This document shows, one piece after another, positions 571 through 35,247 of a stretch of DNA of 64,000 nucleotides (positions within the stretch are counted from its first letter, which is position 1; every line of letters starts with the position of its first letter). The notes beneath the pieces are model-generated. The model saw nothing but the letters and a program-made list of their open reading frames with translations, ran no database searches and was not told the origin of the DNA. The DNA is from Dehalococcoidia bacterium (lineage in GTDB: Bacteria; Chloroflexota; Dehalococcoidia; SM23-28-2). Location of the stretch: positions 187 to 64,186 of the forward strand of contig DAOUEZ010000003.1 in NCBI GenBank assembly GCA_034429995.1, written 5' to 3'. A program made the translations under genes and the position numbers.

Positions 571-603
571 CGCAGGCATGTCGGAGGGCATCCTGAAAGC
601 AAG

Positions 604-673
604 CCGCTCATGGTGAGCTTGTCGAACCAGGAGCGGGCGTTCGCTCGTCCTTCGACGGGCTCAGGATGAGCGG
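604..673. repeat. Hairpin repeat copy R1, two modules in opposite orientation
   Basis: Module ccgctcatggtgagcttgtcgaaccaggagcgg then cgctcgtccttcgacgggctcaggatgagcgg. Each module has a ~9 bp stem and a 13 nt loop (TTCGACNNGCTCA or its reverse complement). R1 lies between the nitroreductase start and the cofC 3' end. Confidence 0.8.
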
Positions 674-1369
674 AACGAGGGGCAGGGATGCGAGGAGCTG
701 CCGGCTTCTGGTGCCATTCGGTTGGGCGAGAAGGGCCGCCAGGTCGTGCGGGCGGTCGATGTCGAGGGCTAGGGAAGGGAGCGGGAGCAGCGTGAGGGGC
801 AGGCCGCGCGCCCTTGCCTCGCGCTGGTGGGCGGCAGAGCTGCGGTGGCCGAAGCGGAAGGGGATGGTGCCGGGTGGCTGGAGGGCGAGGGCGTTGGTGC
901 CGCCGCTGCGCGAAGGGCAGAGGACAATCGACGGGTTGGTGTTCATGCGGTTAAGGATAGCCTCTATGTCGGCGGTGGTGGCCAGGGGCACGTCGACGGG
1001 GAGGACGAGAAGGCCGCTGGCGCCCTGCCCAGAGAGCACGTCCGAGGCGAAGGCGAGGGCGGCGTTCAAGCCGCGGGGCTGGGGCGGCTCCCGGATGGCC
1101 TGAGCGCTCAGCCGGCGGGCGAAGGCCAGCACATCGGCGTCGGGGCTGACGACGGCGGTGGTGGCGATGGCGGGCACGTCGGCCAGAAGGCCGACGACAT
1201 CCTCGAGCATGGCCATGACCAGGGCGTGGCGCTGGGCGTCGGAGAGGACGGGCCGCAGGCGGCTCTTCGAGTGGCGCAGGGCTTTGACTGGCACCAGGGC
1301 GGCGATGATGCCTGTTGAAACACTCTGGTGCGCCGTTCGTGGTTCGACAGGCTCGCCACGAGCGGACAT
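608..1369 (-). CDS. cofC: 2-phospho-L-lactate guanylyltransferase CofC (F420 biosynthesis)
   Basis: The segment IIAALVPVKALRHSKSRLRPVLSDAQRHALVMAMLEDV matches the CofC N-terminal motif. The ORF's 5' extension (to 1597) and its last ~20 codons are translations of repeat copies R2 and R1, so the start is placed at the ATG at 1367-1369, inside the repeat. Confidence 0.7.
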   Translation of the reverse strand: MSARGEPVEPRTAHQSVSTGIIAALVPVKALRHSKSRLRPVLSDAQRHALVMAMLEDVVGLLADVPAIATTAVVSPDADVLAFARRLSAQAIREPPQPRGLNAALAFASDVLSGQGASGLLVLPVDVPLATTADIEAILNRMNTNPSIVLCPSRSGGTNALALQPPGTIPFRFGHRSSAAHQREARARGLPLTLLPLPSLALDIDRPHDLAALLAQPNGTRSRQLLASLPLVPLILSPSKDERTPAPGSTSSP

Positions 1370-1414
1370 ACAAAGGTGGTCAAGATCGCTCGCCCTGAGC
1401 TTGTCGAAGGGCGG
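1334..1414. repeat. Hairpin repeat copy R2
   Basis: Modules cgttcgtggttcgacaggctcgccacgagcgg and cgctcgccctgagcttgtcgaagggcgg. The stems carry compensatory changes (cgtgg/ccacg versus catgg/ccatg in other copies). R2 sits in the cofD-cofC junction. Confidence 0.8.
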
Positions 1415-1440
1415 ACAGGGCCCTTTCTCGACGGTCTCCA

Positions 1441-2499: not shown

Positions 2500-3980
2500 G
2501 GCTTGGGTGGGGGCTTCTTGCGGGTGCGCTTGCGCTTGGGCTTGAGCGCGCCGACGGCGTGGAGACGCTCGAGGACGCGGCGGGCACCCGGGATGCGCTC
2601 AAGCCGTTCCAACGAGCCGATGAGGTCGTCTAGGGCGCGGGGCTGGTCTTCTGCCTGGGAGAACAGTTCTTGCGCCTGGCGGAGCTTGTCCTTGGCCCTG
2701 GCTAGGTCGAGGCGCTGAAAGAGAGCGAGGCCCAAGAAGAGGGTCATGAATGCTTGGCCTGGGAGATGGTGCAAGTCGCGGTAGAGCGCCAAAGCTTCGG
2801 TCAGGGGCTCATCAGCGTCGTCGGGCTCCTGACGGCTGAGGTGGATCGTGCCGAGGGTGCCGAGAGCCTCGGCGGTTCCCTTTTGGTCGGCCGCCTCTTT
2901 GGAGAGAGCGAGCGCACGGAGGCAGCGGTCGAAGGCCCGCGCGTGGTCACCGCGGTCGCGAGAAATGGCAGCCGCCCTGTCCAGAGCCCAGGCCTGCCGG
3001 GCGAGGTCGCCCTGGTCCGCGTAGAGCTCAGAGGCCGCAAGGTAGGATTGTTCCGCCTTGTCAGCATCCTTGCGCGAGCGGTACACGTCGCCCAGGTCGG
3101 ACAGAACCGCTGCTCTGCCCCTCTGATCGCCGACTTTGTCGAAGATGTCTAGGGCGCGCCTATTGAGTTCCTCGGCCTTCCGCAGGGCGCGAGGGTCGCC
3201 GCGCTGCTGGTACATGTTGCCGAGGTCGCCGAGGCAGCGCGCGCGGCCCTTCTCGTCGCCCAGGCGTTCGCGGGTAGCGAGCGCCTCGGTCAGGCATCCC
3301 TCCGCCTCGTCTAAGCGCCCTTGCCGCCGGTGCACAAGGCCTAGCGAGGCCAACACATCGGCGACAGTGGATTCATGGCCAAGACTTCGGAATATCTCGA
3401 GAGCCTCTTTGTGGTAGCTTTCCGCTGCTTCCAGTCGGCGCTGCTCGTAGGTGGCGAGACCCAATCCCAACAAAGCTACGCCCTCGGGTTCGCGTTCCCC
3501 GGCGCTACGGGCCAGGTCCAAAGCCTGCAGGAGGTGCCCCTCAGCCTCCGCAGGCCGCTGGAGCATGCCGAAATTCCACCCGATGCAGATGTGAAGGGTG
3601 CAGCGGTGGATGTCCTCGGTCGCTGCGGCGAAGGCCTTCTCGTACTGCCGTATGGCACCGGCGTGGTCCCCTGCGGCTTCAAGCCGCTGACCTTCCTCGA
3701 ACGCATTCCGTACGGCGAGTAGAGGGGCGTCGGGCAGACCGTCTACATAGTGTGGGGCGTTGATTATGGTGACGGGTGCGTGGAAATGCTGGGTGGCGGC
3801 TACCAGGGTGCCCATCTGTCGCCGCACAGCTTGCTCGGTAGCAATGATGGAGTCCTTGATCGTCTGATCGCGGCCAGCGGTCACGGCTCCACGGTCGGCT
3901 TGAACAGTGGGTTGCCCGCGAATCCTGTTCCAGAGCCAGCGGGCTGCGGCGGGAACCCATGAGAGCCACGGAATCGCCAC
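2496..3980 (-). CDS. Tetratricopeptide (TPR_12-like) repeat protein with a basic C-terminal tail
   Basis: Multiple 34-40 aa repeats with TPR periodicity, for example ALxxLGxxxxxxGxxxEAxxxxxxALxIxxxxGD. The GTG start overlaps the mutS2 stop and the stop overlaps the cofD start. Confidence 0.7.
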   Translation of the reverse strand: MAIPWLSWVPAAARWLWNRIRGQPTVQADRGAVTAGRDQTIKDSIIATEQAVRRQMGTLVAATQHFHAPVTIINAPHYVDGLPDAPLLAVRNAFEEGQRLEAAGDHAGAIRQYEKAFAAATEDIHRCTLHICIGWNFGMLQRPAEAEGHLLQALDLARSAGEREPEGVALLGLGLATYEQRRLEAAESYHKEALEIFRSLGHESTVADVLASLGLVHRRQGRLDEAEGCLTEALATRERLGDEKGRARCLGDLGNMYQQRGDPRALRKAEELNRRALDIFDKVGDQRGRAAVLSDLGDVYRSRKDADKAEQSYLAASELYADQGDLARQAWALDRAAAISRDRGDHARAFDRCLRALALSKEAADQKGTAEALGTLGTIHLSRQEPDDADEPLTEALALYRDLHHLPGQAFMTLFLGLALFQRLDLARAKDKLRQAQELFSQAEDQPRALDDLIGSLERLERIPGARRVLERLHAVGALKPKRKRTRKKPPPKP

Positions 3981-6346
3981 TATCGTGCTACCTCCACGAT
4001 GGTCACGCCCTCGCCGCCCTCCTTGGGCGGGGGCGTCGAGAGCGATTTTACCAGCGGGTGCTCCGATAGGGCATCGCGGATGCCGCGGCGGAGGGTGCCG
4101 GTGCCCTTGCCGTGGACGATGCGCACCTGGGGCAGGCCGGCGCGGAAGGCGGCGTCCAGGTGCTGCTCGATGAGGGGCATAGCCTCGTCGATGGTCATGC
4201 CGCGCACCTCCAGCTCGGCCGGCGGCGGCTCGGACGGCGGGAGGCTGGTGTCGACGGCCGTGACTTCGGAGGCCTTGTCCACTCCCTCGACCTCGCTGAC
4301 GTTGATCCTGCCGTGGAAGGCGCCCAGGCGGACGGCGAGCTCCCCGACCGCGGTCGGGGGGCCGAGGGCCTCGGCGGGCTGGGAGAGGTCGCGCAGCCAG
4401 AGGCGGTCGCCGGCGGCGATGGGCGGGAGGGGGCCCTTGCGGCGCCTGCGCTTGCGGCGCACCTTCTCCACCCGCTCCTCGACGGCCTCGACCTTCTGCT
4501 TGGCGGCTTCCAGGGCCTCCTTGGCGGCGGCCTCGCGCTCGGCGCGGGCGATCTCCTTGGCGGCGGTGCGCAGGCGGGCGCGAACCTGCTGGAGCTCGCG
4601 CTCCATCTCTAGGCGCGTCCGCTCGATAGTGCGATCGTGCTCGGTGTCCACGGCGGCCAGCTTCTCCGCCAGGCCGGCGCGGATCGCCTCGGCTTCGCGG
4701 CGAGCGATCTGCTCGGCGCGGGCGGCGTCCGCTGCCTGCTGGCGCTCGCGCTGGATCTCGGCGAGGAGGCTCTCGATCTCCTGGCGGTCGGGGGCGATGT
4801 GCTGGCGGGCGCGCTCGAGGATGTCGGGCGGCATGCCCAGGCGGTCGGCGATGGCCAGGGCGTTGCTCTGGCCGGGCAGGCCGATGCTCAGGCGATAGGT
4901 GGGGGCGAGGCTCTCCAGGTTGAACTCCACCGAGGCGTTGACGATGCCCGGCGTCGTGTGGGCGAAGAGTTTGAGCTGGCCGTGGTGGGTAGTGGCGACG
5001 GTGGTGGCGCCGACGTCCAGGAGGTGGTGGAGGATGGCCTGGGCCAGGGCTGTGCCCTCGCTGGGGTCGGTGCCGGCGCCGAGCTCGTCGAGGAGGACGA
5101 GGGTGTTGCGCTGGGCCTCGCTCAGGATGTGGATGATGTTGCCGACGTGGGAACTGAAGGTGGACAGCGACTGCTCGATGCTCTGCTCGTCGCCGATGTC
5201 GGCGTGGACGGCGGCGAACACGGGGACGCGGCTGCCCAGATCGGCGGGGATAGGCAGGCCGGCCTGGGCCATCAGGGTGAGCAGACCGACGGTCTTGAGG
5301 GCGACCGTCTTGCCGCCGGTGTTCGGGCCGGTGATGAGGACGATGGAGTAGGAGTCGCCCACCCAGATGGAGATGGGCACTACCTCGCCGGTGAGCAGAG
5401 GGTGGCGGGCGTTCATCAGACGCAGCTCGGCGGGGCCCTCGGCCAGCCAGGGCTGGTCGTCGCTGAGGTAGGGGAGCTCTTTGGCGTCAAGCGACTCGCC
5501 CAGATTGGCCTTGGCCAGGGCCAGGTCGAGCTCGGCCAGCGTGTCCACCGTCATCTCGATGTCGGCGGCGGCCTGGCCGACGCGGGCGCTGAGGGCGCGC
5601 AGGATGCGCTCGACCTCGCGTTGCTCCTCGAGCTGCAGCTCGCGCCAGGTGTTGCCCAGCTCGACGGCCTCCAGGGGCTCAAGGAAGACGGTGGCGCCGC
5701 TGCTGGAGACGTCGTGGACGATGCCCGGCAGTTGGCCGCGCAGCTCGGCCTTCACAGGGATGACGTAGCGGCCGTCGCGGAGGGTGACAATGGGCTCCTG
5801 GGCCGCTTGCCGGCCGGTGGACGAGGAGAGGATGTGCTGGAGCTTGGCGGTCAGGCGGTCGTGGGCCAGGCGGGTCTCGCGGCGGAGCTCGGACAGGATG
5901 GGGCTGGCGGCGTCGGTTACCTCGGAGCGGGGGTTGATGCAGCGCGAAATCTCCGCCGCCAGGGGCGAGAGGTCGGCCAGTCCCTCGGCCAGGGCGGTGA
6001 GCAGGGGCAAGTTGATGCCGAGGCGCTGGATGGTGTTGCGCAGCGATACGGCCAGGCTGAGGGTGGCCTGGATGTCGAGGAGCTCGGCGGGCTCCAGGAC
6101 GCCGGCCAGGGCTGCCTTCTGGACCTGGGGACGCACGTCGTGGGCGCCGCCCAGGGTGAGGTTGGGCTGCATCTCGAGCAGGCGGCGGGCCTCGGCGGTG
6201 ATCCGCTGGCGGCGGACGACCTCGGCGTAGTCGGAGGACGGGCGGAGGGCAAGGGCCAGCGCGCGGCCGGCGGAGAAGGCGGTGTGCCCGGCCAGGCGGG
6301 CCAGCACCTTGTCGAACTCCAGAGTGGAGAGAGTCTTAGCGTTCAT
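3980..6346 (-). CDS. mutS2: Endonuclease MutS2 (MutS domain plus C-terminal Smr domain)
   Basis: Walker A motif GPNTGGKTV and a C-terminal Smr domain (VHGKGTGTLRRGIRDALSEHPLV). The start is placed at ATG 6346 (MNAKTLSTLEFDKV) because it has an AGGAG Shine-Dalgarno 6 nt upstream. The ORF track extends to 6364. Confidence 0.9.
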   Translation of the reverse strand: MNAKTLSTLEFDKVLARLAGHTAFSAGRALALALRPSSDYAEVVRRQRITAEARRLLEMQPNLTLGGAHDVRPQVQKAALAGVLEPAELLDIQATLSLAVSLRNTIQRLGINLPLLTALAEGLADLSPLAAEISRCINPRSEVTDAASPILSELRRETRLAHDRLTAKLQHILSSSTGRQAAQEPIVTLRDGRYVIPVKAELRGQLPGIVHDVSSSGATVFLEPLEAVELGNTWRELQLEEQREVERILRALSARVGQAAADIEMTVDTLAELDLALAKANLGESLDAKELPYLSDDQPWLAEGPAELRLMNARHPLLTGEVVPISIWVGDSYSIVLITGPNTGGKTVALKTVGLLTLMAQAGLPIPADLGSRVPVFAAVHADIGDEQSIEQSLSTFSSHVGNIIHILSEAQRNTLVLLDELGAGTDPSEGTALAQAILHHLLDVGATTVATTHHGQLKLFAHTTPGIVNASVEFNLESLAPTYRLSIGLPGQSNALAIADRLGMPPDILERARQHIAPDRQEIESLLAEIQRERQQAADAARAEQIARREAEAIRAGLAEKLAAVDTEHDRTIERTRLEMERELQQVRARLRTAAKEIARAEREAAAKEALEAAKQKVEAVEERVEKVRRKRRRRKGPLPPIAAGDRLWLRDLSQPAEALGPPTAVGELAVRLGAFHGRINVSEVEGVDKASEVTAVDTSLPPSEPPPAELEVRGMTIDEAMPLIEQHLDAAFRAGLPQVRIVHGKGTGTLRRGIRDALSEHPLVKSLSTPPPKEGGEGVTIVEVAR

Positions 6347-6358
6347 GACACTCCTGTT

Positions 6359-6529
6359 GCTCATCCTTCGACGGGCTCAGGATGAGCGGGATGATTCACC
6401 CTACGAGGAACCGCTCATAGTGAGCTTAGCTAGAATAATCCGCTCATGGTGAGCCTACTTATGGTAGTCCGCTCATGGTGAGCCTACTTATGGTAGTCCG
6501 CTCATGGTGAGCTTGTCGAACCATGAGCA
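6359..6529. repeat. Hairpin repeat copy R3 with an internal 2x29 bp tandem unit
   Basis: A perfect module gctcatccttcgacgggctcaggatgagcgg at 6359-6389. Then ccgctcat(a/g)gtgagc partial units at 6410, 6441, 6470 and 6499. The unit tccgctcatggtgagcctacttatggtag is duplicated exactly at 6439-6467 and 6468-6496, and a full module lies at 6499-6529. Confidence 0.85.
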
Positions 6530-6798
6530 CGGGATAGTCGTCTGAGGTCGTCCCAGTCGCCTGTAGTCAAAGCCTCCTTCTTCCTCCTCGACCAACCCTT
6601 CAGTTGTCTCTCGCGCTGAAAGGCATCTTCTCGAGAAGGGAATTCCTGATGAAAGACGAGCTGGACGGGTCGGCGAGAGTGGGTGTAGCCCGCGATCTGT
6701 CCGCTTTGGTGAGCGGCGAGCCGTCTTTCGAGATCGTCGGTGTGACCCACATAGTAGGAGCCGTCGGCGCAGCGGAGGATATAGACGTAGAAGCTCAC
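6502..6798 (-). CDS. GIY-YIG nuclease family protein (UPF0213 / YhbQ-like, 98 aa)
   Basis: FYVYILRC...YVGHTDDLERRLAAHQSG...RERQLKGWSRRKKEAL is the canonical GIY-YIG motif set. The last ~11 codons (LSRAHGSTSSP) are encoded by repeat R3. Confidence 0.85.
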   Translation of the reverse strand: MSFYVYILRCADGSYYVGHTDDLERRLAAHQSGQIAGYTHSRRPVQLVFHQEFPSREDAFQRERQLKGWSRRKKEALTTGDWDDLRRLSRAHGSTSSP

Positions 6799-6816
6799 CG
6801 AAGGAGCCCGGGTCCT

Positions 6817-6896
6817 CGCTCATGGTGAGCTTGTCGAACCATGAGCGGGAGGGCGTCAGCGGGTGCCTCGTCCTTCGACAGGCTCAGGACGAGCGG
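6817..6896. repeat. Hairpin repeat copy R4
   Basis: cgctcatggtgagcttgtcgaaccatgagcgg (perfect) followed by cctcgtccttcgacaggctcaggacgagcgg, which has a compensatory stem variant cgtcc/ggacg. Confidence 0.85.
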
Positions 6897-6900
6897 ATGG

Positions 6901-7000
6901 GGGGCGAGGGCCAGGGCGCGGCCGGCGGAGAAGGAGCTGTGCCCGGCCAGCCGGGCCAGTATCTTGTCGAACTCCAGGGTGGAAAGGGTTTTAGCGTTCA
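6901..7000 (-). pseudogene. Degenerate duplicate of the mutS2 5' end (codons ~1-34), start codon lost
   Basis: ~87% nucleotide identity to 6245-6346. The reverse-strand translation reads NAKTLSTLEFDKILARLAGHSSFSAGRALALAP versus MutS2 NAKTLSTLEFDKVLARLAGHTAFSAGRALALAL. The ATG is replaced (ttcatgac becomes ttcagggt). The fragment overlaps the GNAT gene stop. Confidence 0.75.
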
Positions 7001-7497
7001 GGGTTCTGTTCCTGCCTTGCAGATAGTTTTCTCCCCAGCACGACCGAGGTTTCCCGCTGGCGGGCGGGGATGTCCCAGTACGTCCGCAGGAGGGCGTCGC
7101 CGTCGGGCAGGAGGCGGAAGCCGTGCTTCTCGTAGAAGCGGATGGCCCAGGTGGCGTCCGCCCAGGTGCCCACCAGGAGACGCTCGGTGGTCGTCAGGCC
7201 CATGACGTGGCGGACGAGGGCGCTGGCGATGCCCCGGCGCTGGCGGTCGGGCAGCACGTAGCAGTGGCGCACCAGGGTCACGTCCCTGATCGGCTCGTAG
7301 CCGATGACGCCCGCCAGGCGTCCGTCCTCCTCCCAGGCGTAGAAGGTCATGCGGGCGGCCTCGCGCTCCAGCTCGTCCAGGGGCATGTAGGGCTGGTGGT
7401 AGCAGTCGGCGGGGATGACGCTCTCGTAGGCGCTAGCGGCGTCGTTGATGACGGCGAACATGCGGCGGAGGTCGGCCTGGTTGCAGGGTCTAATCAC
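6991..7497 (-). CDS. GNAT family N-acetyltransferase
   Basis: The acetyl-CoA binding motif region RQRRGIASALVRHVM...RFYEKHGF is typical of GNAT. Confidence 0.8.
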   Translation of the reverse strand: MIRPCNQADLRRMFAVINDAASAYESVIPADCYHQPYMPLDELEREAARMTFYAWEEDGRLAGVIGYEPIRDVTLVRHCYVLPDRQRRGIASALVRHVMGLTTTERLLVGTWADATWAIRFYEKHGFRLLPDGDALLRTYWDIPARQRETSVVLGRKLSARQEQNPER

Positions 7498-10522: not shown

Positions 10523-11629
10523 ATGAACCTACGTATTCCTGGTCCTACGCCTGTTCCGCCCGAGGTGCTGGAGGCGAACGCTCGCCCGATGATCAATCAT
10601 CGCGGGCGGGAGTTCGCCGGCATCCTCGACCGGGTGACCAGTCGTCTCAAGGAATTCTTCCTGACGAAGAACGACCTGTTCATCCTCACCACCTCCGGGA
10701 CCGGCGCTATGGAGGCGGCGGTGGTCAATACCCTGTCGCCCGGCGACCGTGTGCTGGTGATCTCCATCGGTGCTTTCGGTGATCGCTTTGCGAACATCGC
10801 CAAGGCCTACAGCGCTGAGGTGAGTCGGCTCGATTACGAGTGGGGCAAGGCCGCCGACCCCGAGGACGTGCGGCGCGCCCTGGCTGCTGACCCGGCCATT
10901 AAGGCGGTGCTGGTGACCCACAACGAGACATCCACGGGCGTCACCAACCCGCTGGAGGACATCGCCCGTGTGGTGCGGGAGTTCGACAAGCTGCTGCTGG
11001 TGGATGCCGTAAGCAGCCTAAGCGCCATTCCTGTCCGTACCGACGATTGGGGGCTGGACTTCGTGGCTACCGCCTCTCAGAAGGGGTGGATGGTGCCGCC
11101 GGCTCTGGGCATGGTCTCGGTGGGCCCGCGTGCCTGGGAGGCTCATGCCAAGGCCAAGATGCCCCGTTTCTACATGGACATTACGGCTGCCAAGGACTAC
11201 CTTGGCCGTGGTCAGACGCCCTGGACACCCGCCATCTCCGTCTTCTACGGCCTCGAGTTGGCCCTGGACATAATGGCCCGGGAGGGTCTGGAGAACATCT
11301 TCGCTCGCCATCGGCGCATAGGCCAGTTCGTGCGCGACGGCGTGAAGGCGCTGGGGCTGGAGCTGTTCGCCGACCAGCGCTTTGCCTCCGATACGGTAAG
11401 CGCTGTCAAGGTGCCCGAGGGGGTGGACGGCAAGGCCCTTCAGAAGCTCTGCGAGGACGAGTACGACCTGATAATCGGCGGCGGCCAGGCCAAACTAGCC
11501 GGCAAGATCTTCCGCATTGGCCACCTGGGCTTCGTGTCAGAGGAGGACATACAAGCGGCTCTGGACGTGCTGGCCAAGGCCCTGCCGCGGGTGGGATTCG
11601 CCGTCCCTGCTGTTGGCTCCGGAGGGTGA
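10523..11629 (+). CDS. serC: Class V aminotransferase, probable phosphoserine aminotransferase (archaeal type)
   Basis: Aminotransferase class V fold with the ATASQKG PLP-lysine region. It sits immediately upstream of serA. Confidence 0.7.
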   Translation: MNLRIPGPTPVPPEVLEANARPMINHRGREFAGILDRVTSRLKEFFLTKNDLFILTTSGTGAMEAAVVNTLSPGDRVLVISIGAFGDRFANIAKAYSAEVSRLDYEWGKAADPEDVRRALAADPAIKAVLVTHNETSTGVTNPLEDIARVVREFDKLLLVDAVSSLSAIPVRTDDWGLDFVATASQKGWMVPPALGMVSVGPRAWEAHAKAKMPRFYMDITAAKDYLGRGQTPWTPAISVFYGLELALDIMAREGLENIFARHRRIGQFVRDGVKALGLELFADQRFASDTVSAVKVPEGVDGKALQKLCEDEYDLIIGGGQAKLAGKIFRIGHLGFVSEEDIQAALDVLAKALPRVGFAVPAVGSGG

Positions 11630-35011: not shown

Positions 35012-35104
35012 GCCAGGCGAATAACTAGGGTAAGGCGGAGCATCTCCGCGTGGCGACCTTCTGGCACCTTCGAATGATGAAGGCTGTTGAAAAAGCGCCC
35101 TTGT

Positions 35105-35187
35105 TCGCCCTTCGACACGCTCAGGGCGAGCGATTTGAGGTACCTCTGCGTATCTCCGCTCGTGGTGAGCCTGTCGAACCATGAACG
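35105..35187. repeat. Hairpin repeat copy R5
   Basis: cgcccttcgacacgctcagggcg has a covarying gccc/gggc stem. The second module is ccgctcgtggtgagcctgtcgaaccatgaacgg. R5 is intergenic, between the DUF35 gene and the thiolase-DUF35 fusion. Confidence 0.8.
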
Positions 35188-35247
35188 GAGCAGGGGGTTT
35201 TCAACAATCTCGATGCTTTGCCGCTGTGAAGCCTTGAGAAATCTCCA

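Follow-up and report, generated by a model that had tools for sequence, protein, structure and literature searches.

A 64,000-nucleotide stretch of the genome of a Dehalococcoidia bacterium (assembly GCA_034429995.1, contig DAOUEZ010000003.1; hereafter the window) contains a single-domain GIY-YIG nuclease gene enclosed by hairpin repeats, located between a GNAT acetyltransferase gene and mutS2. The evidence makes it fairly probable that this unit is a small mobile cassette that combines a GIY-YIG nuclease with hairpins resembling repetitive extragenic palindromic (REP) elements, arranged as in the systems of Ssn nucleases with SRM repeats, and that its insertion at the GNAT/mutS2 overlap left two copies of the mutS2 5' end. 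The insertion survived because the first 33 mutS2 codons are present twice. The upstream copy retains the GNAT stop and opens a leader reading frame through the hairpins to the GIY-YIG start, and the downstream copy provides the working mutS2 start behind a cassette-derived hairpin and an AGGAG motif. The locus thus offers sequence evidence that such cassettes may move. Coordinates are positions in the window, and L-numbers denote homologous comparison loci from NCBI, Logan and JGI contigs.

The insertion is directly visible in the comparison loci, as are its empty sites, its patchy distribution, its other target sites and the conserved hairpin–gene–hairpin geometry. Orthologous loci were recovered by scanning metagenomes with the MutS2 N-terminus. 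Three of them, L112, L125 and L095, are empty: the GNAT stop overlaps the mutS2 start, and MutS2 and GNAT are 86–93% and 85–90% identical to their counterparts in the window. The empty junction reads caATGAacgctaa in L112 and cgCTGAacgctaag in L125. Because empty orthologous sites occur in close relatives, the window arrangement is an insertion, and the cassette was inserted at the overlap of the GNAT stop and the mutS2 start, where there is no intergenic DNA. A first-pass annotation, made from the window sequence alone, had anticipated empty sites in which mutS2 starts at the position of the upstream copy and abuts the GNAT stop, and the three loci bear this out, abutting or overlapping it. 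The same annotation held that the upstream copy had lost its ATG; CTG indeed stands there and the GNAT stop lies inside the copy, but this is not necessarily decay, as empty relatives start mutS2 with CTG (L125, L094 and L096) or TTG (L095, L087 and L090). The start geometry of the upstream copy, with CTG overlapping the GNAT stop, is that of the empty allele L125. An assembly artifact is ruled out, as the architecture recurs in assemblies made independently of one another: L001 (NCBI), L002 (Logan) and contigs of JGI.

In many genomes of this clade mutS2 appears to start with CTG or TTG, at position 2501 in L125, L094, L096 and L090, at 607 in L095 and at 1142 in L087, and a Shine–Dalgarno-like AAGGAG or AGGAAGG precedes the CTG in L096 and L094. 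The GNAT–mutS2 junction is variable in other ways as well. L087, L088 and L090 carry a 247-amino-acid open reading frame (ORF) of lower GC content with no Pfam match (1733–2476 in L090), L094 has a small hydrophobic ORF (2140–2500), and a proteasome-subunit-like gene lies between GNAT and the cassette in L007.

At mutS2, the cassette is present in the close relatives L001/L002, L089 and L091–093, in distant loci in which MutS2 is only ~60% identical (L003–006, L007, L108 and L130), and in L173–177 and L188, in which MutS2 is ~73% identical. A neighbor-joining tree of MutS2 N-termini intermingles filled sites with empty ones and requires at least four changes of state. The identities of nuclease and MutS2 are also incongruent: between L003 and the window clade, the GIY-YIG proteins are 82–85% identical and the MutS2 proteins 58–61%. 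The corresponding values for L173 are 67–80% and 70–73%, and the GIY-YIG protein of L188 is 85% identical to that of the window.

The duplication of about 100 bp reported in the first-pass annotation is real. The direct repeat pairs 6239–6345 with 6894–7000 at 87% identity over 107 nt (blastn, 88.9% over 99 nt) and covers mutS2 codons 1–33. The downstream copy A (6248..6346, minus strand) begins with the mutS2 ATG at 6346 and continues into the full gene (3980..6346, minus strand; 788 amino acids; Pfam MutS_V, E=5e-34; Smr, E=3.5e-23). The upstream copy B (6903..7001, minus strand; 87–89% identical to 6248–6346) is a relic of codons 1–33 in their native context and has CTG (7001..6999) where copy A has ATG. 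The GNAT gene (6991..7497, minus strand; Pfam Acetyltransf_1, E=2e-15) ends with TAA at 6993..6991, within codons 3–4 of copy B. The insert between the copies measures 554 nt (~0.55 kb), and its sole gene encodes the 98-amino-acid GIY-YIG protein.

The extent of the duplication differs between filled loci. It spans 99–107 nt in the window, 85 nt at 95% identity in L001, 38 nt at 100% in L003, 26 nt as detected (~46 nt by eye) in L007 and about six codons in L108, and none was detected in L089, L091–093, L130, L173 or L188. In L188, GNAT is followed by a true intergenic spacer, and the cassette lies within it with no duplication. Since filled sites exist that lack it, insertion need not produce the duplication, which is seen where the stop of the upstream gene overlapped the start of mutS2 and both gene ends needed to be retained. 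The start codon forms the outer boundary of the duplicated stretch in three loci, the window, L003 and L007.

The two copies in the window differ at 11 positions in codons 2–33, eight of which are third-codon positions (P=0.009), and the three resulting amino-acid changes are conservative. Such a pattern is the one expected of two functional alleles rather than of a gene and its decaying relic, judging by these substitutions. Over 96 nt, each copy shows nine differences from the empty alleles L125 and L112 and 12 from the other copy, too few sites for donor and recipient to be traced firmly by distance. The first codons of copy B are those of L125, and copy A carries unique synonymous changes. 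The working copy in L001, L089, L091 and L174 starts ATGAGCACT[TG]CTGCYAAG (MSTSAK), a start not seen in any empty allele, and copy B of L001 retains the native start of the clade, TTGAACCCTAAG.

These comparisons bear on the earlier suggestion that the insert carried its own replacement 5' end, as do integrative elements at tRNA and tmRNA genes and e14 and phage 21 at icd. The mostly synonymous differences between copies A and B and the MSTSAK starts support it in part and make it plausible, while the missing duplication at many filled sites speaks against it as a general rule. In both situations a duplicated gene end flanks the insert and leaves the target gene intact, with one copy native and the other arriving with the insert. 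The window insert differs in that it has no integrase, the 5' end is the one duplicated, the duplication is absent in many relatives, and host recombination would be required.

The GNAT, GIY-YIG and mutS2 genes all lie on the minus strand in that order. Immediately after copy B comes hairpin 1 (6867..6896), which has the loop TGAGCCTGTCGAA on the gene strand ('-' orientation) and a predicted single-stranded DNA (ssDNA) fold of -7.7 kcal/mol. Hairpin 2 (6817..6846), in '+' orientation on the gene strand, lies ~20 nt 5' of the GIY-YIG start and has a predicted ssDNA fold of -12.1 kcal/mol (z=-5.0). The GIY-YIG gene (6502..6798, minus strand; Pfam PF01541, E=1.4e-20) starts with GTG. Hairpin 3 (6499..6528), also '+' on the gene strand, spans its stop codon and encodes the C-terminal HGSTSSP*. 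A repeat-family search places three 29-nt tandem units, each with the half-hairpin GCTCACCATGAGCGG, at 6411..6512, one more than the two previously counted; units similar to them occur in L091, L093 and L173. The last element (6347..6389) consists of hairpin 4 ('-' on the gene strand, 6360–6389) and the spacer AACAGGAGTGTC, which contains AGGAG at 6351–6355, between the hairpin and the mutS2 ATG.

Hairpin 4 and its spacer form the new translation-initiation region of mutS2. Upstream of the mutS2 ATG stand a '-' hairpin and ACAGGAGTGTC in the window, or a '-' hairpin and ACGGGAGCGCA in L093. The hairpin and ACAGGAGTGTC module also precedes the GIY-YIG start in L091 and L092, and an analogous one does so in L093. 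Cassette sequence therefore now stands in front of the working mutS2 start, as the first-pass annotation had noted, and that start has gained both its ATG and its AGGAG from the cassette. The further suggestion that the cassette supplies a mutS2 promoter does not fare well, as it rests on one weak consensus match in a promoter scan, TCGACA-18-TACCAT (6519..6490, minus strand), to which the hairpin loop and the first 29-nt unit contribute. A half-hairpin GCTCACCATGAGC followed by GGATTATTCT gives a terminator-like score at 6454..6442.

A leader ORF of 68 codons (6795..7001, minus strand, by translation) runs from the old CTG (7001..6999) in copy B through two hairpins to a TGA that overlaps the GIY-YIG GTG (GTGA), and an equivalent open frame is found in seven of ten mutS2-associated loci. 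This arrangement weakly suggests translational coupling of the GIY-YIG gene to GNAT.

The GIY-YIG protein has a single Pfam match (PF01541, residues 3–74 of 98), and the domain ends at about residue 75. Its homologues number 2397 matches, many of exactly 98 amino acids, and Y6, Y16, R26, H30 and E63 are invariant in the alignment. Its best matches among solved structures are UPF0213 proteins, namely BH0048 (1zg2, E=1.1e-20) and 1ywl (E=6e-14). UPF0213 proteins (YhbQ, BH0048 and EF2693) are likewise of this size and single-domain, and we know of no association with hairpin repeats or mobility for them. No record was returned by a look-up of the exact protein sequence, and none of the NCBIfam models matched it. 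The hairpin had been thought to overwrite the C-terminus of the protein; instead, the hairpin-encoded tail AHGST[GS]SP* is conserved across the subfamily and is encoded by the 3' hairpin in most members.

Genomic matches to the family number at least 593 and come from Dehalococcoidia, Sphingomonadaceae, Burkholderiales, Nitrospirota, Binatia and others. Among 76 usable loci from several phyla, a '-' hairpin lies within 150 nt upstream in 51, a '+' hairpin at the 3' end in 57, and both in 47. Hairpin density is 2.27 per kb near the gene and 0.19 per kb elsewhere in these loci, a twelve-fold difference. Repeat-flanked GIY-YIG genes thus occur elsewhere, as the first-pass annotation had supposed, but the accompanying duplicated ends of neighboring genes do not: at the imuB/dnaE2, hemB/HAD and sphingomonad nrdR/SpoU sites, no duplicated gene ends were found, only hairpin-derived repeats. 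Long tandem arrays of hairpins also stand beside the GIY-YIG gene in some Dehalococcoidia and Burkholderiaceae (L035, 2677–3940; L009, 3249–5311; L070, 4077–4329), and the L035 array holds more than 20 copies at ~44-nt spacing.

The other sites are diverse. Of the homologues 72–74% identical to the window protein, those of L167–169 and L189 lie between imuB and dnaE2 and that of L172 has hemB on one side and a HAD hydrolase gene on the other; further homologues, 74% identical, are at mutS2. In L167–L169 and L189 (~2580–3470), from two other Chloroflexota species, the cassette occupies the imuB-(DUF6504)-dnaE2 mutagenesis operon, directly 5' of dnaE2. In Sphingomonadaceae (L043, L048, L060 and others; ~3870–4450), a homologue is found at one conserved location, next to nrdR and, on its other side, a SpoU/TrmH-type methyltransferase gene, which accounts for the JGI name 'tRNA/rRNA methyltransferase' on some homologues. 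The sphingomonad hairpins have the variant loop TGAGCGAAGTCGAA.

The hairpins themselves have stems of 8–13 bp with a variable, co-varying inner part and a conserved loop, TTCGACNNGCTCA. The window contains 12 occurrences of this loop motif where 1.3 would be expected, and none of 100 shuffles reached 12. The four hairpins around the GIY-YIG gene have predicted ssDNA folds of -7.7 to -12.1 kcal/mol, and stems differ between copies with compensating changes (CATGG/CCATG, CGTCC/GGACG and CACCC/GGGTG). Members of the same repeat family also occur as pairs with no nuclease gene at the 3' end of cofC (603..670), between cofD and cofC (1335..1415) and in an intergenic position (35098..35190). Given these gene-less pairs at gene boundaries, the hairpins form a REP-like family that is spread through the genome rather than confined to the cassette.

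The cofD/cofC pair is an in-frame insertion like those of Rickettsia palindromic elements (RPEs). RPEs are inserted in frame in genes and belong to a different repeat family from the window hairpins, which are likewise translated, in the C-termini of the GIY-YIG and cofC products, in an N-terminal extension of the cofC product and in the leader ORF. L003 has an ATGA overlap of the cofD stop with the cofC start (at 10910–10920), and the window has a hairpin pair there, in frame with cofC. The native cofC ATG is now ATC in the window, and an ORF from a GTG/ATG overlapping the cofD stop runs through both hairpins into cofC. At its other end, the cofC frame extends into the pair at 603–670 and ends in ...LILSPSKDERTPAPGSTSSP*, the same hairpin-encoded tail that the GIY-YIG protein has; cofC of L003 has a different end and no hairpins.

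The hairpin–gene–hairpin class itself is already known from Ssn and SRM. Ssn proteins (cd10448) are single-domain GIY-YIG nucleases of ~94 amino acids that bind the NTS/SRM hairpin and cut only adjacent ssDNA (Chenal et al., Nat Commun 2025, PMC11893778). NTS/SRM repeats, which number hundreds of copies, lie on both sides of the ssn genes, and the authors noted an architecture like that of insertion sequences (IS) and an analogy to REP/RAYT, with mobility only hypothesized (PMC11893778). For comparison, Ssn-type proteins were retrieved with a cd10448-like query as stand-ins for N. meningitidis SsnA. Ssn-type genes of Nitrosomonas and Sphingopyxis carry exact NTS-like repeats, CGTCATTCCCGCGAAAGCGGGAATCC, ~39 nt upstream and at the stop in opposite orientations, which independently confirms the published Ssn/SRM association. 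In L178–L187 (~1940–2320), these genes lie beside rapA in Nitrosomonas and beside an HhH-GPD glycosylase gene in Sphingopyxis.

Like Ssn/SRM, the window cassette combines a single-domain GIY-YIG protein of ~95–100 amino acids with hairpins ~40 nt upstream and at the stop in opposite orientations, its repeats are scattered elsewhere in the genome (12 motif matches in 64 kb), and its distribution across phyla is wide. It differs in protein, in hairpin and in its genomic sites. The window protein is 34% identical (pairwise E=4e-14) to the SRM-flanked stand-in P0149, and BH0048 scores better. The window hairpin has a conserved 13-nt loop and a variable stem, whereas SRM has a conserved flank and a short-loop stem. 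For the window family, moreover, orthologous sites are known both with and without the cassette, and the insertion has hit the 5' end of a coding sequence. These comparisons point to the window cassette as a sister of Ssn/SRM with a hairpin of its own. What had been described as a minimal mobile cassette is supported by the empty sites and the many hairpin-flanked homologues, but it is not new in kind (PMC11893778). New are the sister family with a different hairpin, the natural filled and empty alleles, and the insertion at an overlapping junction with a duplicated gene start. L188 has a hairpin of another kind, CGTCATTCTGAGTCCGCTAGAGGCGGACGAAGAATC, in the interval from GNAT to the cassette (2655–2700). 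It begins like an NTS/SRM repeat, and two hairpin families, the cassette's and an NTS/SRM-like one, may coexist in that genome.

REP/BIME elements and their RAYT proteins (IS200/IS605-type Y1) offer a further parallel, as they too pair a single-copy nuclease gene with genome-dispersed flanking hairpins, often as inverted pairs at gene boundaries. They differ in that the window encodes a GIY-YIG protein and not an HUH/Y1 transposase. A literature search found nothing that joins GIY-YIG with repetitive extragenic palindromic sequences and nothing relevant on COG2827, UPF0213 or YhbQ.

The arrangement in the window could have arisen by single-crossover (Campbell-type) integration of a circle that carried the cassette together with a mutS2 5' fragment from the start codon to about codon 33. 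Such an event would yield the order native 5' end, donor remainder, cassette, donor 5' end and native gene, and a later crossover of copy A with copy B would remove the cassette precisely and leave an empty site again. The left junction also shows microhomology, as CCGCCCGTCCTCCGA of mutS2 is similar to the hairpin arm CCGCTCGTCCTGAGC, and a microhomology-mediated event at this point may have been the seed instead. By analogy with Ssn, the nuclease would nick the hairpins as ssDNA and could thereby drive the spread of hairpins and cassette. Separately, mutS2 codons 11–13 read TTCGACAAG, the core of the hairpin loop. Mimicry of the target through TTCGACAAG is kept as speculation only, as filled and empty alleles cannot be told apart by its GAC/GAT variants and the distance from the motif to the junctions ranges from 0 to 60 nt.

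Taken further, GIY-YIG/hairpin cassettes (Ssn and its sister) might be widespread minimal mobile elements that lack an integrase, enter overlapping junctions by means of a carried 5' fragment of the target, integrate and excise through that fragment and supply the host gene with a ribosome-binding site, with the nuclease as the GIY-YIG counterpart of RAYT that generates the dispersed hairpins. This generalization is offered tentatively, as a possibility somewhat more doubtful than not. If it is true, the locus and its empty-site relatives are the first sequence-level demonstration that these cassettes are mobile.

Several observations weigh against a mobile cassette, and some of them agree with a different history, in which one ancient insertion and duplication was inherited vertically, the upstream copy was eroded by deletions, sometimes homogenized by gene conversion and lost by recombination between A and B, and the cassette became domesticated and immobile. 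The proposed mechanism, including cleavage and mobility, is derived wholly from sequence. Most filled sites lack the duplication, and the Campbell-type route is therefore not general. The tree and the identity matrix come from 98-amino-acid and 330-amino-acid segments of metagenomic contigs. The SRM consensus HGTCWYN(0-2)YYVSBRHN(0-5)WNVSBRGN(0-2)RNCYNB has no match in the window and none beside the GIY-YIG gene in 13 loci, although the same expression does find the exact NTS-like repeats beside Ssn-type genes. The leader frame is weak evidence, as reading frames stay open in GC-rich DNA and any ATG/GTG-AGC start brings the overlapping TGA with it. Codon 20 is GGG (Gly) in copy A and copy B alike, a derived state that relatives do not show and that points to duplication within the lineage or gene conversion and not to a foreign 5' end. 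The leader of L093 and L091 (ATGATCAGCCCCGCTCCCTATCCG...) resembles an internal deletion of the L001 arrangement, and reading these loci as deletion derivatives fits one old insertion with erosion as well as it fits repeated insertion. The GIY-YIG gene is single-copy wherever this can be checked (one in the 64-kb window and one per long contig), a state more like that of a domesticated REP-associated (RAYT-like) gene than of an active IS.

The shared codon, the L093/L091 leader and the single-copy state all favor the ancient insertion, as does the presence of the cassette at the same gene where MutS2 is only ~60% identical. Against it stand the homologues at unrelated sites, which are about as close to the window protein as others that sit at mutS2, and the incongruent identities of nuclease and MutS2. 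Precise loss of the cassette is not possible at filled sites without a duplication, but empty loci very closely related to such sites exist (L094 for L174; L088 and L090 for L091), and the duplication in L003 is fully identical. Vertical inheritance of one old event is accordingly unlikely, although it is the strongest of the alternatives. Mobility of the cassette remains the preferred reading. Searches of plasmid and phage collections returned only distant homologues (<60% identity), mostly on chromids, and no vehicle.

The first-pass annotation had also raised a homing event. A free-standing GIY-YIG homing endonuclease would make a double-strand break in an empty mutS2 5' end, and repair of the break would copy the cassette and co-convert its flanks. 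As with I-TevI and the Seg proteins, there is a presence/absence polymorphism at a conserved gene (empty in L112, L125 and L095; filled in the window, L001 and L091–093); the mutS2 5' end contains the loop core TTCGACAAG, and the right flank shows allele-like differences. A classical homing endonuclease is nevertheless quite improbable. The protein is a bare 98-amino-acid catalytic domain with a hairpin-encoded tail in place of a C-terminal DNA-binding domain, and characterized relatives of this architecture cut only ssDNA (PMC11893778). In addition, the duplication is not a product of homing, the family occurs at many unrelated sites, and the motif TTCGA[CT]AAG does not separate filled from empty alleles.

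More improbable still is a transposition-like insertion at widely staggered nicks, whose fill-in would give target-site duplications of 4 to ~100 nt. Duplication lengths do vary between lineages and a nicking nuclease is predicted to be encoded, but an outer edge that coincides with the start codon in three loci is unexpected of random staggering, and intergenic insertion sites have no duplications. It is scarcely credible that the GIY-YIG protein works together with MutS2 in a repair operon, with regulatory hairpins: its neighbors are often DNA-repair genes (mutS2, imuB/dnaE2, and the HhH-GPD glycosylase gene beside an Ssn-type gene), but close relatives lack the cassette and the same protein family stands beside hemB, HAD, nrdR and SpoU genes.

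The 2025 Ssn paper left open the role of the nuclease outside Neisseria and the movement of the repeat–gene–repeat unit, and the locus bears on both. A second nuclease/hairpin pair with Ssn geometry, frequent in Chloroflexota as well as in sphingomonads and other phyla, suggests that GIY-YIG proteins, each with its own hairpin, form a broader class. Natural filled and empty alleles, together with the alternative sites, make mobility and mechanism directly testable. The locus also illustrates how hairpin elements are tolerated at overlapping junctions, by duplication of a gene start or by in-frame reading, with mutS2 re-equipped with a new start region.

The hairpins also matter for annotation, where they explain recurrent spurious peptides (LVLSLSKDE, FDKLRTSG and HGSTGSP) and mis-called gene starts. 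No Rfam family reached its gathering threshold anywhere in the window, and 6200–7100 gave only chance-level matches at E values up to 10.

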